DNA of 64,000 bases from positions 512,001-576,000 of the forward strand of contig OZ242365.1 of the NCBI GenBank assembly GCA_965208905.1, read 5' to 3'. Shown here piece after piece: positions 17,756 to 43,341 of this stretch. The stretch is from Nitrosopumilaceae archaeon. Its GTDB lineage: Archaea > Thermoproteota > Nitrososphaeria > Nitrososphaerales > Nitrosopumilaceae. The notes beneath the pieces were generated by a model, which was not told where the DNA came from, ran no database searches, and worked only from the letters and a program-made list of their open reading frames with translations. Within the stretch, counting starts at the first letter, position 1. Each line of letters begins with the position of its first letter. The translations under genes were made by a program, and so were the position numbers.

Positions 17756-18075
17756 TGTGGTCTCTCCTGTCCTTTTCCTTCTTTCATGTTTTTTTCTATA
17801 ATAAGTGCTCCCTTCATTAATCCAATTTCATGACTGTTGTCTATTGCTTCTTGGACTATACGTTCTGGGCTTATTCCTTTGTGCTTTCCTATCGCCTCTA
17901 CTTGTTTGTATAATTCGTTACTAATTTCTATAGGTTTGTATGTGCCGTATTCCGCTTTTATTCCTTCTCTGACTATGTCGTCTGTTTTTTTGTTGCCTTG
18001 TGCTTTGTATTCTTCTAGTGCTTTGTGTGTGTCTTCTGTTATCATTATCTCTCTTGTTGCTTTCTCTTTTGTCAT
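17752..18075 (-). CDS. Small putative DNA-binding protein (two ribbon-helix-helix-like repeats)
   Basis: EIMITEDTHKALEEYK...DDIVREGI and PIEISNELYKQVE...ERIVQEAI. Confidence 0.55.
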   Translation of the reverse strand: MTKEKATREIMITEDTHKALEEYKAQGNKKTDDIVREGIKAEYGTYKPIEISNELYKQVEAIGKHKGISPERIVQEAIDNSHEIGLMKGALIIEKNMKEGKGQERPQ

Positions 18076-18182
18076 TGTTGTTGCTTGTGCTTTGTGTGTA
18101 TTATGTTATTTGTCCTTCAAACTAATACCCACAGTCTCTAAATTCCTGTGCTTGTGGGGAGGGACCAGCAATCGTAAATATT

Positions 18183-19647
18183 GGGAATTATATACAAAAG
18201 TACACAACCCCAATTCTGAGAGTTAATGCCTGAACCACGGATCGCGTCCATACAACTCCCCTTAAATACTAGCATACCGTATTATATATCATGATACGGG
18301 TAGTTAAGGTACCGCTACGGAGGGATGTGTTGTTTGCAGAGTGGGCGCACCGCACGAATCATGCGTCAAGATATGTGTACAACCGCGCCGTATCAGAGTA
18401 TTTGTTTGGTGGCGAATATAGGAGAGGGTGGTAGTGGACATCCTGCAGCCCTTCAAACTGCCGGGCAAGCTGGATTTTACATCAGGTATGCTGGACGATG
18501 ACTACCATACATATGATTTTGGGCCATCAAAGAATGTATTAAAGTACGGCATGTTCAAGCAGCTTACGGAGTGGCGCGCTGAACATGCATGGGTATCTGA
18601 CTTGCCTATGGTGTTTGGCAGGGGCGCCATACAAGATGCCTCTATCGCATGTAGAAGAGTTGTAGATGACAACTCCGGCCATGCGCCATACCGCCGCAAA
18701 GACGGCCGCATCATACTATACAGTGTAAATCCGCCTGTACGAAAAGGTGAGCACACCATACATATCCCCGGATATGGTATTGTAGAGACCGCCAAGCCCA
18801 TCGATGTATCGTGGGACATGCGGTCATTCAAGATAGTTGATGTCACCAAACGGGTGGACAAGCATACAAAGCCGTCAGACCACATGTTTGAGCTGCATAT
18901 TGCCGTGCGTGTACCGGTCGAGCCACACCATAATACAGGTGTAATGCGTGGCGTCGATGTGGGCGGCAAGCACCTGGCAGTTACTGTCGACACAAATGGC
19001 AATGTTACAATACACAACACCCGCCATAGAGCAATCCTGCGGGAGATTGACGCGCTAAAGAGTTTGCGCGACCGCAAGACACGGCATGGCCGGAAGTGGC
19101 ATATATTGAATGACCAAATAAAGCGGCTATACAGGAAGGCCAACAACATAGCCGCGAACACGATAAATCAGACGATTGCGCAGATAACTAGTGGTGTGGA
19201 CGCAGTCGTGGTCGAGTCGCTCTCCGTAAAGGACATGACCACACATGGTGGGAATTACAAACGCGCTATGAACCGTTCAATGCGGGAGAACCATGTTGGG
19301 GAGTTCCTGCGCAAGCTTGCGCAGTGGTGTGAGATACACAACATACCGCTGTTGGGGGCATCTGCCAAATACACGAGCCAGACGTGCCATGTGTGTGGTC
19401 ACGTAGACTCAGAGTCGCGTATATCACGCGACAAATTCATTTGCACAAATTGTACCAGGGTATTCCACGCGGATGTCAATGCCGCCTGGAATATTCTGTA
19501 TAGGGCGGCGGGGAACGTCGTCCTAAGACGGCCGGGGCACAAGGAGGGCTACAAGCCAACACCTTCTATGCTCCACTCCATACAACGAAGTCGTCAGAAA
19601 AGGCATGAGTGTACAGCCGAGGCTGTGTACTTTTGTATATAATTCCC
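18183..19647 (+). mobile_element. Non-autonomous TIR element encoding TnpB (element A)
   Basis: Perfect 24-bp TIR GGGAATTATATACAAAAGTACACA (18183-18206 / 19624-19647); perfect 8-bp TSD TAAATATT (18175-82, 19648-55). Confidence 0.93.
18291..19642 (+). CDS. tnpB: RNA-guided nuclease TnpB, with a frameshift near 18420
   Basis: N-terminus MIRVVKVPL...ASRYVYNRAV from 18291 in another frame; RuvC GVDVG / VVVESL / HADVNAA; Zn finger TSQTCHVC...CTNC; TATA-like CTTAAATA at 18262. Confidence 0.9.
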
Positions 19648-19676
19648 TAAATATTTGGGTGTATTACATATGAGTT

Positions 19677-20147
19677 GTGGACAGTCATCATAAAATCAAT
19701 TGTACTGTTGATGCACTATATGGTGCTGGCGCCTCGGCATACATCCCCTCAGATATAACAATGACGTATTATCGGACGGGTCGTATTCGTGAGGTGTATC
19801 ATAATGGCACGCTCTTGTGCACTCTGCGTATAGATGGGGGACTTGCCATCACTCTGGACTTTGCGCGTATACTACTGCAGTGTAAGGATTTTGATGAGTA
19901 CTGTATAGAAGTAGACGATGATGCAGCTCCCTTTGTTGCCGAAGGCAAGTCGGTCTTTGCATCACATGTAGTACGATGCGGCAAGTATGTCCGGATATCA
20001 TCAGATGTGCCTATATTGTATAACAATGATGTAATAGCCGTGGGGCGGGCGGTCTTGTCTGAACCAATGATTGCAGGGTCCCGTAGGGGCGTAGTGGTAC
20101 GAGTCAGGGATAGTTTAAAAAGAAGAGGCCGCATATTCTCAACATGA
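19677..20147 (+). CDS. PUA-domain protein (archaeosine TGT C-terminal-like)
   Basis: TGRIR, PFVAEGKSVFASHV, AVGRA, VRVR. Confidence 0.85.
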   Translation: MDSHHKINCTVDALYGAGASAYIPSDITMTYYRTGRIREVYHNGTLLCTLRIDGGLAITLDFARILLQCKDFDEYCIEVDDDAAPFVAEGKSVFASHVVRCGKYVRISSDVPILYNNDVIAVGRAVLSEPMIAGSRRGVVVRVRDSLKRRGRIFST

Positions 20148-41921: not shown

Positions 41922-43341
41922 GGGAATTATATACCTGGGTATGCACGCGTAACATACGCGTACATTCCTAGGTGCTTCATGGCGCTTGATGTCTTGGGTC
42001 GATTGCACGCTTGATTCTCACGCCGCCGTCTGGCGTCCGGAACTGCACAAACAGGTGGCTTCCGGGTCCGGCCCATTTCACGCCTTTCGAGGGCTATTCC
42101 TTCCCCCGCGGGAACCTTCATACCGGTCCCCCGTTGTATGATATTCACCGGCGCATTGCCATCGGCGTTTGCTACATGGTTACATCTAAGGCACTTGAAC
42201 ATCTCCCCATTTCGGTTCTCCTTGGATATGTAGCCGCATATACTGCACTCCTGGCTCGTGTGTTTTGGACTTACCTCTACTACACGGATGCCCAGCCGCT
42301 CTGCGATGGTGTGGATCTTTCGCAGTATTGCATAATGCCGAATGAACCTCATACCGCGGTTCATACCCTTCTTGTGCCTGCCACCGCGCCTGCTCATGGC
42401 CTCGAGGTTGAGCTGCTCGACATATATTACATCCACGCCCTCGCATATCTTCTTGGCCAATAACCACTCTGCATACTCGCGGTCGTTCGCATTACCGCGG
42501 TTGTACTTTTCTCGCTTGCGTTTAATTTTACACGTCGAGTTGGAGTGTTTATTGCGATGTGAGATGGTACGGCGCGTCTCATCATTCCATGTACGGTTCG
42601 TGCGGAATGCGGTTGCTGTATCGTATAATGTTATATTTGAGGCGTTATGGTCTGTCTTGCACACGACGGTCGGATTTGTTATCCCTCTGTCTATGCCGGC
42701 AACAACACCAGTCTTGGCGCGCCGTTCGGGTACTGGTACGTCATATGTTATGTGCAGCCGGTAGATATGGTCACATGACTTGACGTGCCCCCATGACTTT
42801 GGTGTTACACATACCAAACGGAAAGACCTTGAGCCATACAGCCAGTTATGTGGAAACTGATATGGCTGCTCCTCAGACAACTCAACAACACCAAGGCCCG
42901 GCAATGACGCGTGCCTGTTGTCCACAAATCGCGGCTGCACATCACATGATACTGCCTTTTTATTATCGCGCTTTCTGGAGCGGAAACTCAGCTCGCCATT
43001 GCCGTATTTGTTCGAGACATCCACAGCAGTGCGGGCCTGATGGATGGCCGTATTTTGGTAGATGCGCTCCACTGTTTGTAGCCACGATACGGAACGCCTC
43101 ACCTTGGTGAACTCTCTGGAGAGGTCATATGTAGTAAGTGTGGGGTTAGTAAGCAGCCGCTCCACGGCCCAGTTGTACACGAACCGTTGTGAGTCCCGTA
43201 TTTTGGATATGTGACGCGCCTGAGAGCGTGTCAGGTCTATGCGGAAGCCATAAGACCGATACATGTAGTTTTGTATACCATAATACTTTATAAACATGTA
43301 CTCTACAGGACTTGCCTTGCCTACCCAGGTATATAATTCTC
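41922..43341 (-). mobile_element. Non-autonomous TIR element encoding TnpB (element B)
   Basis: TIR GGGAATTATATACCTGGGTA (41922-41) vs GAGAATTATATACCTGGGTA (reverse complement of 43322-41), 19/20; flanks CTGATTTC (41914-21) / TTAATTTC (43342-49), 6/8. Confidence 0.9.
41927..43264 (-). CDS. tnpB: RNA-guided nuclease TnpB (intact)
   Basis: MYRSYGFRI...RFVYN; RuvC GIDRG / IYVEQL / NADGNA; TSQECSIC...CLRC; TATA TTTATAAA about 25 nt upstream. Confidence 0.92.
   Translation of the reverse strand: MYRSYGFRIDLTRSQARHISKIRDSQRFVYNWAVERLLTNPTLTTYDLSREFTKVRRSVSWLQTVERIYQNTAIHQARTAVDVSNKYGNGELSFRSRKRDNKKAVSCDVQPRFVDNRHASLPGLGVVELSEEQPYQFPHNWLYGSRSFRLVCVTPKSWGHVKSCDHIYRLHITYDVPVPERRAKTGVVAGIDRGITNPTVVCKTDHNASNITLYDTATAFRTNRTWNDETRRTISHRNKHSNSTCKIKRKREKYNRGNANDREYAEWLLAKKICEGVDVIYVEQLNLEAMSRRGGRHKKGMNRGMRFIRHYAILRKIHTIAERLGIRVVEVSPKHTSQECSICGYISKENRNGEMFKCLRCNHVANADGNAPVNIIQRGTGMKVPAGEGIALERREMGRTRKPPVCAVPDARRRRENQACNRPKTSSAMKHLGMYAYVTRAYPGI

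Follow-up and report, generated by a model that had tools for sequence, protein, structure and literature searches.

What moves a tnpB gene that lies between inverted repeats in an element with no transposase, and what might its nuclease do there? The question is raised by a locus in the window, the 64,000-nt stretch of DNA analysed here, from the genome of a sponge-associated archaeon. The unit at 18183-19647 is most likely a non-autonomous member of the IS1595 family, with IS1595-type ends and without the transposase.

The element, its tnpB gene and its genomic copies

Analysis of the locus confirmed the perfect 24-bp terminal inverted repeats and the exact 8-bp TAAATATT target-site duplication described in an earlier note on this DNA, and tnpB, said there to be the sole gene between the repeats, is the only gene in that interval that can be assigned to a family (Table 1). 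A search of the window for the 24-bp repeat, allowing up to 3 mismatches, returned exactly 2 matches, and 100 shuffles returned 0. The outer 13 nt of the left repeat, GGGAATTATATAC, are common to IS1595-family elements. Upstream of the gene, the heptamer TTAAATA possibly serves as a tnpB promoter element. The interior also contains an antisense open reading frame of 219 aa.

Table 1 Features of the tnpB element and its flanks, in window coordinates
Feature	Position	Strand	Basis or remark
ATCG, candidate TAM (G at 18174 directly 5' of left duplication)	18171-18174	+	consensus about A-T-N-G
Left target-site duplication copy, TAAATATT, 8 bp	18175-18182	.	sequence; single TAAATATT at empty site elsewhere
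Left terminal inverted repeat, 24 bp, GGGAATTATATACAAAAGTACACA	18183-18206	+	perfect
TTAAATA, possible archaeal TATA box	18262-18268	+	conserved in 15/15 copies; about 23-29 nt upstream of tnpB ATG
tnpB N-terminal piece, ATG 18291 and 47 codons, then TAG	18291-18434	+	alignment with other copies
tnpB main open frame, 404 aa	18428-19642	+	Pfam; RuvC D-E-D; CxxC...CxxC motifs
Candidate omega-RNA scaffold	19478-19647	+	overlaps tnpB 3' end and tail; reaches element end
Right terminal inverted repeat, 24 bp, exact reverse complement of GGGAATTATATACAAAAGTACACA	19624-19647	-	
Right target-site duplication copy, TAAATATT, 8 bp	19648-19655	.	

The encoded protein was identified as a TnpB by OrfB_IS605 / Cas12f1-like TNB domains that exceed the curated cut-offs (PF07282, 3.1e-16, 59.7 bits, cut-off 26.3; PF01385, 1.3e-9, 38.8 bits, cut-off 30.5), and an intact paralogue scores 130.7 bits against NCBIfam NF040570, guided_TnpB (cut-off 100). 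Its RuvC D, E and D motifs (GVDVG, VVVESL and HADVNAA) align with those of a solved TnpB structure (PDB 8iaz), and a zinc finger, CHVCGH...CTNC, is present. The tnpB stop codon sits inside the right inverted repeat. Alignment with the 14 other full copies revealed that the window gene is broken by the absence of one T after 18420, as a result of which the true start runs into the TAG at 18432-18434, leaving an open frame of just 404 aa; 14 of the 15 full copies have an open frame of 450-451 aa, an example of an intact copy being the paralogue at genome positions 456071-457536. The window copy is frameshifted and may therefore be dead cargo. The deletion may also be an assembly error: the extra T is present at this site in all contigs of four public runs, which possibly derive from other copies and decide neither way.

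The genome holds 15 full copies of the element, 1426-1479 bp in length. Target duplications are exact (8/8) in 11 of them and 7/8 in one, all with different sequences, and the three copies without a duplication (5/8, 4/8 and 2/8) are tentatively attributed to recombination between copies. Genome-wide, the 24-nt end matched 41 times with up to 3 mismatches, versus 0 in the control, and four IS1595-family DDE elements share its outer part, an outcome in favour of the earlier note, which had proposed this search. The other copies have no IS605-type ends. An empty allele with a single TAAATATT, also foreseen from the window alone, is present in a same-genus relative (G005), in the order left flank, one TAAATATT, right flank, and in a 47-kb contig of public run X7 that joins 18174 to 19648, the 8 letters fitting either side.

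Scans of metagenomes with the exact 24-mer gave 0 matches. A degenerate 18-mer matched at least 120 stretches; among the matches listed, 23 ends share GGGAATTATATACAAAGTTAC and one end pair has an 8-bp duplication, enclosing open reading frames without a Pfam match. These degenerate matches carry no information on the window element.

Candidate omega-RNA and flank motif

The candidate omega-RNA region has a conserved structure in 13 sequences from 3 lineages, with 20 predicted pairs, 9 of them showing compensatory change; 93.6% of cells are paired, versus 41-56% with the partners slid. An Rfam scan of 18000-19800 gave only a sub-threshold HDV-like match (20.5 bits versus 44), and hence no known RNA family in that interval. 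The first predicted stem has an invariant GGGAA loop, for which the UUCCC at the end of the inverted repeat is a possible partner; in this putative pseudoknot 4/5 pairs never vary, and one sequence would double as transposase site and omega-RNA pseudoknot. If the RNA is made in the manner of IS200/IS605 TnpB omega-RNAs, the predicted guide would begin with the 8 nt of the right duplication copy. In two sponge metatranscriptome runs, whose libraries may contain DNA, tnpB copies are covered in part and by short contigs alone; one of these extends past the right end of another copy into its flank, and the contigs show no RNA ends.

Bases flanking the duplications were counted programmatically, and Fisher tests were run on these counts. 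A G directly 5' of the duplication occurs in 13/15 full copies on the tnpB-upstream side and in 4/15 on the opposite one (p=0.0025), and in 12/12 versus 3/12 when only duplication-bearing copies are considered; both tnpB-upstream flanks without the G belong to duplication-less copies. The corresponding numbers in relatives, counted by reading, are 8/11 and 1/11, and in G006 one of five exact-duplication copies is without the G.

This asymmetry fits a TAM external to the duplication and a TnpB directed at the empty site. TnpB and the omega-RNA, guided by the duplication and the right flank, would read the TAM followed by the single 8-bp target and right flank, exactly the arrangement of a site that is empty or from which the element has been precisely excised, and would drive the element back into it. 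We consider the case for such a TAM to be about evenly balanced. The conserved G-ending motif directly 5' of the duplication would serve as the TAM for cutting of the empty site, upon which recombination would copy the element back in. Only insertions beside a TAM and in the right orientation would persist, which would account for the clade-specific motif on the tnpB-upstream flank: G in the IS1595-ended clade A, and TA or TTG in the clades with GGTTCC... ends, the motif being absent from the other flank and from transposase-only IS1595 elements.

Alternatively, the conserved G could arise because the transposase complex prefers its targets asymmetrically. DDE-type movement would then be real, the G would be no TnpB TAM, and TnpB might work at other sites, if it acts at all. 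The sequences immediately internal to the 24-bp repeats are not the same at the two ends, which makes such a complex conceivable, and enrichment of A and T on both sides, at -12 and -11, indicates a degree of target selectivity in the transposase. However, the ends of transposase-bearing IS1595 elements carry G at the same position in only 3/18 cases, and TnpBs of a second family, whose ends are unrelated, have an upstream-side motif of their own, TA, at 14/15 flanks versus 2/16 (p=7e-6). A sub-family of this second group has TG in 5/8; such a change of motif with the TnpB clade is the behaviour of a TAM. We therefore regard target preference as a possible but doubtful source of the G.

Candidate IS1595-family partners and probable mobilisation in trans

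The cassette is probably moved in trans by an IS1595-family DDE transposase encoded by another element, and TnpB may cut the empty site. Four IS1595-family DDE elements of 2131-2837 bp are present in the same genome (PF12762 at about 1e-40, with Zn_ribbon_IS1595), among them those at genome positions 1043578-1046414, 1770047-1772736 and 675271-677401. Their termini begin GGGAATTATA(TAC), and they are flanked by exact 8-bp duplications (AAAATTAT, AAAAAAAT, AAAATTAT and CAATTTTA). The tnpB elements have in common with these carriers of a zinc-ribbon DDE_Tnp_IS1595 transposase the 8-bp length of the target-site duplication and the outer 10-13 nt of the termini. With inverted ends of IS1595 type and an 8-bp duplication, the element is most likely moved by an IS1595 transposase. 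Recognition of the GGGAATTATATAC... termini by this enzyme, supplied by another element, and insertion of the cassette with 8-bp staggered cuts would yield the 8-bp target duplication; the identity of the acting transposase is inferred, and the movement may be of the cut-and-paste kind.

Relatives were sampled by protein search of five named genomes, and IS1595 transposases were found in 5/5. In the sister genome G005, an IS1595 transposase (L072; NF033547, 163 bits) adjoins the end GGGAATTATATACAATAGTACA, which is identical to the repeat at 21/22 nt. A 2.56-kb unit in the relative G001 (L056 1606-4167) encodes a TnpB of 441 aa together with a 320-aa IS1595 transposase (169.7 bits against NF033547) within one CCGGTATC duplication. 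The earlier note had proposed that TnpB was captured by a DDE transposon family and mobilised in trans, and the multiple copies, the empty site, the IS1595 ends and this two-gene unit support the proposal.

Another enzyme might nevertheless move the element, its true partner lying on a virus or plasmid or being a gene that was not recognised, and the shared termini would then reflect ancestry or convergence. In the IS1595 elements of this genome, the match to the 24-nt repeat stops after its outer 10-13 nt; the closest match, 21/22, comes from another genome. The inner 11 nt are conserved across genera and are accounted for by none of the transposases found. The full 24 nt are kept across genera with no matching reader found; in another genus (G015) the identical repeat bounds elements whose interiors are beyond alignment and which also have 8-bp duplications. 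Against a different enzyme stand the equal duplication length, the AT-rich 8-mers of both kinds of element in this genome, the G005 end, the joint TnpB-transposase unit and the occurrence of IS1595 transposases in every relative searched, and we consider it improbable.

An ordinary tnpB-only element of the IS200/IS605 family (IS1341 group), mobilised by a Y1 TnpA and showing repeats and a duplication by chance, is hardly credible here, even though this family is the commonest TnpB carrier (PMC10691335). That reading is refuted by the perfect 24-bp repeats (0 matches in shuffles), the 7-8/8 duplications that 12/15 copies each have as their own, the empty site with one 8-mer copy, and a score of 77.8 bits against NCBIfam NF038281, IS200_TnpB (cut-off 425).

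The score against NF038280, the IS607-type TnpB protein, is likewise below its cut-off (83 versus 350). Movement of these elements may involve more than one transposase, or another influence on target choice, since in G006 the 8-mers around clade-A-like copies are AT-rich and those around clade-B-like copies GC-rich. A quick tree, with noisy end-type labels (any 10-mer match within 500 bp), places the TnpBs that have IS1595-type ends in three or more well-separated clades (15, 5 and 3 rows). For a second TnpB end type, GGTTCCTCCCGCAAAGTCGGGTG, one decayed non-TnpB element with these ends was found, which has no Pfam match. We take the GGTTCCTCCCGCAAAGTCGGGTG ends to resemble those of the IS6 family; PF13610 matches were rejected as partners of the GGTTCCTCCCGCAAAGTCGGGTG-ended elements, being located elsewhere in the genome.

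Relation to known systems and significance

The termini of the window element begin GGGAATTAT, like those of the IS1595 family. GGGAATTAT fits the ISNwi1-group consensus ggnnatTAT, and, as the earlier note suggested, the element is a candidate member of that group. The 8-bp duplication is shared with a family that includes forms with passenger genes and transposase-less cassettes of the MITE or mobile insertion cassette type. In IS1595 partner elements the encoded DDE transposase has a zinc ribbon at its N terminus, and some of these elements also carry passengers such as a methylase-HNH gene, whereas the window element has no transposase and its cargo is an RNA-guided nuclease.

Members of the IS200/IS605 family, including the IS1341 group, resemble the window element in having a single tnpB and a probable omega-RNA that runs over its 3' end to the element end. 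According to the part of a 2026 review consulted, they have neither inverted terminal repeats nor a target duplication (PMC13565253); the window element has both.

Prokaryotic TnpBs associated with DDE transposases and inverted ends (branches DDE-1 to DDE-6) have been described by Altae-Tran et al. 2023, PNAS (PMC10691335), who also proposed, in the part consulted, that solo TnpBs flanked by the ends of transposase-bearing relatives are mobilised in trans. The principle of a DDE-borne TnpB is thus already published. Like the window element, these TnpBs lie within inverted terminal repeats, with the tnpB 3' end near the transposon end. They differ in the partner: IS630 is the sole DDE partner named in the main text of that paper, in which 'IS1595' has 0 occurrences, and its supplementary branch lists may include an IS1595-linked branch. 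The 2026 review, in the part consulted, names ISL2, IS630 and IS1031 as DDE partners (PMC13565253). No link between TnpB and IS1595 was found in the literature searched, and the supplements of PMC10691335 possibly hold one. Nor did the parts of the literature on DDE-linked TnpBs that were searched yield a statement on a motif 5' of the target duplication, and the flank motif outside the duplication looks to be a new result.

Fanzors, the eukaryotic TnpB homologues, offer a parallel, being likewise RNA-guided nucleases captured by DDE transposons with inverted ends and target duplications. For Fanzor1, the reviewed part of PMC13565253 reads the short, fixed 5' duplication (TA or TTAA) as part of the TAM and places the 3' duplication in the RNA scaffold. 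In the window element, by contrast, the 8-bp duplication is variable and does not include the conserved motif.

The use of a TnpB guide RNA by duplication-making transposons is an open point in prokaryotes, and study of OMEGA systems beyond IS200/IS605 and IS607 is called for in the 2026 review, as far as consulted (PMC13565253). The genome provides a compact natural test set for it, with about 15 near-identical, active-looking copies, an empty site and candidate partner transposases, together with a two-gene autonomous relative and a flank motif that predicts both TAM and guide. If the motif is a TAM, it would show the adaptation of an RNA-guided homing nuclease to DDE transposons, and would provide small archaeal TnpBs with predicted new TAMs.

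Anatomy and insertion history of the TnpB element

The source genome is a single contig of 2,214,775 bp with a G+C content of 45.6%, in which the window occupies 512001-576000. Public runs containing the window stretch originate from sponges, and the source organism is therefore a sponge-associated thaumarchaeon. The earlier note had described a tnpB gene between perfect inverted repeats flanked by an exact duplication. Repeats, duplication and TnpB identity were all confirmed, but the frame of this tnpB is broken by the loss of one nucleotide. The 24-mer has exactly two matches in the window at up to three mismatches, and none in 100 shuffles. TnpB appears as a 404-aa open frame at 18428-19642 (Pfam PF07282, 3.1e-16; PF01385, 1.3e-9), which matches the solved TnpB structures 8iaz (1.8e-12) and 8exa (ISDra2 TnpB, 1.4e-7); in these alignments the D, E and D motifs of RuvC fall in register. 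An intact paralogue passed the NCBIfam guided_TnpB model (130.7 bits, cut-off 100), and scored far under the NCBIfam cut-offs for IS200/IS605-type and IS607-type TnpB. Alignment revealed that the window copy lacks one T after 18420 that is present in 14/14 other full copies, so that the frame from the real start (ATG 18291) stops at TAG 18432-18434. The T is present in every contig at this position from four public runs, but these contigs may derive from other copies; the missing T may reflect a genuine frameshift or a slip in assembly.

Coordinates of the TnpB and IS1595 elements
Feature	Location	Strand	Description
Left 8-mer	window 18175-18182, left edge of 18175-19655		TAAATATT, target duplication
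Left terminal repeat	window 18183-18206		24-mer GGGAATTATATACAAAAGTACACA, directly inside left TAAATATT
Interior	between the two 24-bp repeats		1417 bp
Right terminal repeat	window 19624-19647		exact reverse complement of GGGAATTATATACAAAAGTACACA
Right 8-mer	window 19648-19655, right edge of 18175-19655		TAAATATT, second duplication copy
Second tnpB-only element (clade B)	window 41922-43341	minus	456-aa TnpB, ~32% identical to the first
IS1595 element	source genome 1043578-1046414
IS1595 element	source genome 1770047-1772736
IS1595 element	source genome 675271-677401
IS1595 element	source genome 1211856-1213986
GGTTCCTCCCGCAAAGTCGGGTG-ended element	G000:C1:239554-241169		example
GGTTCCTCCCGCAAAGTCGGGTG-ended element	G000:C1:894636-896248		example
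GGTTCCTCCCGCAAAGTCGGGTG-ended element	G000:C1:2201020-2202634		example

Across the source genome, 41 matches to the 24-mer were found (up to three mismatches), compared with none for the reversed control. Fifteen full elements of 1426-1479 bp, here called clade A, each carry tnpB, with a 450-451 aa frame open in 14/15. Their duplications are exact over 8 bp in 11 copies and 7/8 in one, and absent in the other three (5/8, 4/8 and 2/8); the duplicated 8-mers are all different and AT-rich. The 8-mer flanking the TnpB element is a true target duplication. A further copy (G000:C1:1972621-1975198, 2578 bp) is split by an IS630-like element encoding a 335-aa DDE_3 transposase with HTH domains, its outer 8-bp duplication AAAAGATA remaining intact, and a 641-bp derivative formed by internal deletion is also present.

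The empty allele with a single TAAATATT that the earlier note sought in relatives was found twice. In the same-genus genome G005, the left flank, one TAAATATT and the right flank (96% match) follow one another with nothing between, and a 47-kb contig of public run X7 joins 18174 to 19648, where the 8 letters fit either side and the shorter side is only 24 letters. In G005 and in the X7 contig alike, the left-flank match stops ~24-33 nt from the insertion site. The right flank of G005 is 96% identical over 1 kb, yet the left match ends at window ~18151 (~1478 in the G005 locus, L036), and 5/7 bases directly after the 8-mer differ; this break beside the insertion site suggests that the sequence was rearranged there or has diverged locally. 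A search of the G005 genome found no clade-A tnpB (best match 31% identical); hence either the source genome has seen a recent expansion or G005 has lost the family.

TnpB-like frames of 300 aa or more number 56 in the source genome. Among them, the frames with IS1595-type ends form, in a quick tree only, at least three separated clades of 15, 5 and 3 rows with ~30% mutual identity, and DDE-ended tnpB cassettes extend beyond the clade-A family. The clade-B element in the window has ends GGGAATTATATACCTGGGTA... and an imperfect flanking duplication (CTGATTTC / TTAATTTC, 6/8). A second end type, GGTTCCTCCCGCAAAGTCGGGTG, occurs at ~45 ends genome-wide and flanks tnpB-only elements of ~1615 bp with 8-bp duplications. 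These ends presumably resemble those of the IS6 family; a search of the source genome for their partner transposase found none. Two clade-B-type ends also lie 11.6 kb apart at G000:C1:1098872-1110533, where the flanking 8-bp duplication TTGGCACA is exact. Pieces of split tnpB are found at each end, and the ORFs between them are unrelated; among these are a frame of 983 aa and a match to an IS240-like transposase. Either insertions have broken up one element here, or the locus is a large composite.

Ties between the TnpB element and IS1595 elements

A genome search for the same ends with an IS1595 transposase, as the earlier note had suggested, returned four IS1595 elements encoding a DDE_Tnp_IS1595 transposase (PF12762, ~1e-40) with the family zinc ribbon. 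Both ends of all four start GGGAATTATA(TAC), and their exact 8-bp duplications are AAAATTAT, CAATTTTA, AAAATTAT and AAAAAAAT; the outer 10-13 nt only are common to them and the TnpB element. The 12-mer GGGAATTATATA occurs 92 times at up to one mismatch, compared with 3 for the control. Methylase-type passenger ORFs are present in the elements starting at 1043578 and 1770047, the former a DNA methylase with an HNH domain (Pfam).

IS1595 transposases were present in 5/5 relatives searched. One in G005 (NF033547, 163 bits) adjoins an end, GGGAATTATATACAATAGTACA, identical to the TnpB-element repeat at 21/22 positions. In the relative G001, a 2562-bp unit (L056 1606-4167) with CCGGTATC on both sides holds genes for TnpB (441 aa) and an IS1595 transposase (320 aa) that point the same way, and a further IS1595 end lies inside it at 2984; from this layout, the far end of the transposase and the 3' end of the TnpB module are used jointly. 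At two more loci, L055 and L057, tnpB abuts an IS1595 transposase gene. G015, from another genus, has elements of 1870 and 1918 bp whose 24-nt repeat is identical and which show 8-bp duplications and encode a larger TnpB; across the interiors, alignment at the DNA level is lost.

What is observed directly is the DDE-style layout of the element, its recurrent insertion at independent sites, the empty site, and the links to IS1595 transposases, both physical and by sequence; the insertions, empty site and links support the earlier proposal that TnpB is carried by an IS1595-type DDE element moved in trans. We infer that an IS1595-family transposase mobilises the TnpB element, and would do so by acting in trans on the termini common to both element types.

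Related arrangements were seen elsewhere. In G008, an IS1595-type end pair (L052, G008:C69, 1314-2771) encloses part of an IS1595 transposase and, after it, the 3' half of a tnpB resembling clade A; the locus may be a recombinant of the two element types. In G006 (comparison of L058-L062 and L065-L070), clade-A-like elements lie in AT-rich 8-mers (TATAATTA, TAAGAATT, TTAAATTA) and clade-B-like elements in GC-rich ones (TGACGACC, GCCGGCTG, TGGCGCGA), with GGGAATTATAT... termini common to both groups. Metagenome loci from many environments (L089-L165) include at least 23 ends with GGGAATTATATACAAAGTTAC(C/A)C; among the metagenome matches listed, L106 4984-6851 has an end pair spaced at 1868 bp and flanked by the 8-bp duplication CTTGCTTG, and its ORFs gave no Pfam matches.

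Flank asymmetry and a candidate TAM

The base directly 5' of the duplication was scored with each element oriented by tnpB. In clade A, G is found on the tnpB-upstream side in 13/15 copies versus 4/15 on the other side (Fisher p=0.0025), or 12/12 versus 3/12 for copies with a duplication (p=3e-4); both copies without upstream G also lack a duplication. Flanks of relatives, read by eye, gave 8/11 versus 1/11: 5/7 in G006 (4/5 with exact duplication), 2/2 in G015 and 1/2 in G008, where the remaining copy has G adjoining a 7-bp duplication. Transposase-bearing IS1595 elements have G on 3/18 ends, both sides pooled. In the GGTTCC-ended (GGTTCCTCCCGCAAAGTCGGGTG) family, TA precedes the duplication in 14/15 upstream versus 2/16 other flanks (p=7e-6), and a sub-family has upstream TG in 5/8; side was assigned here from the sequence just inside the repeat, which is tied to tnpB orientation in 4/4 elements. 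For clade B, no motif stood out among the 10 flanks examined. The main rival to a TnpB-based explanation of the clade-specific motif is that the transposase selects its targets with an asymmetric preference.

The last 170 nt of the element keep a structure across three lineages, with 20 predicted pairs, 9 of them with compensatory change. In this structure 93.6% of cells are paired, versus 41-56% in slid controls, and 8 pairs carry double changes, versus 0-3; independent changes are few because only three lineages contribute. If the guide were made as in IS200/IS605 elements, it would be transcribed from DNA past the right end and start with the 8-bp duplication. Its sole perfect target not adjoining the element's own end would be the empty site, where the upstream flank would lie 5' of the target, the position of the clade-specific motif. 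The occupied site would be spared from cleavage on the left, where the guide match would stop after 8 nt, and on the right, where ...TTCCC, not the motif, would precede the target. From the motif's position at the empty site and the escape of the occupied site, we propose by analogy that the motif may be the TAM and that TnpB may convert empty or precisely excised sites, so that insertions beside a TAM would persist; this reading we hold about evenly balanced between right and wrong.

Comparison with known TnpB carriers

IS200/IS605 elements have neither inverted ends nor a duplication, whereas the window element has both; it is therefore not to be classed under that family, two of whose defining features fail. 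DDE transposase-associated TnpBs in elements with inverted ends are described in Altae-Tran et al. 2023 (PMC10691335), with the tnpB 3' end at most 250 bp from the transposon end, as are solo TnpBs bounded by the ends of transposase-bearing relatives and proposed to be mobilised in trans; the principle that the earlier note had put forward, capture of TnpB by DDE transposons, was already published. The main text of that paper names IS630 as a DDE partner and nowhere mentions 'IS1595'; a 2026 review lists ISL2, IS630 and IS1031 (PMC13565253). A full-text literature search, judged by titles and abstracts, found no paper on a TnpB-IS1595 link; searches for TnpB with DDE_Tnp_IS1595, ISXO2, IS1595-like or IS1016 gave no paper containing TnpB, and TnpB with Thaumarchaeota, transposase and sponge gave nothing. 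In Fanzor1, according to the same review, the TAM includes the 5' duplication and the scaffold includes the 3' one (PMC13565253), whereas here the conserved motif lies outside a variable 8-bp duplication, an arrangement of which the portions of the literature examined contained no description. The original observation is confirmed, and its interpretation as an IS1595-ended archaeal TnpB cassette is supported. This cassette provides an unusually complete natural data set, in which the flank motif is the part most worth pursuing.
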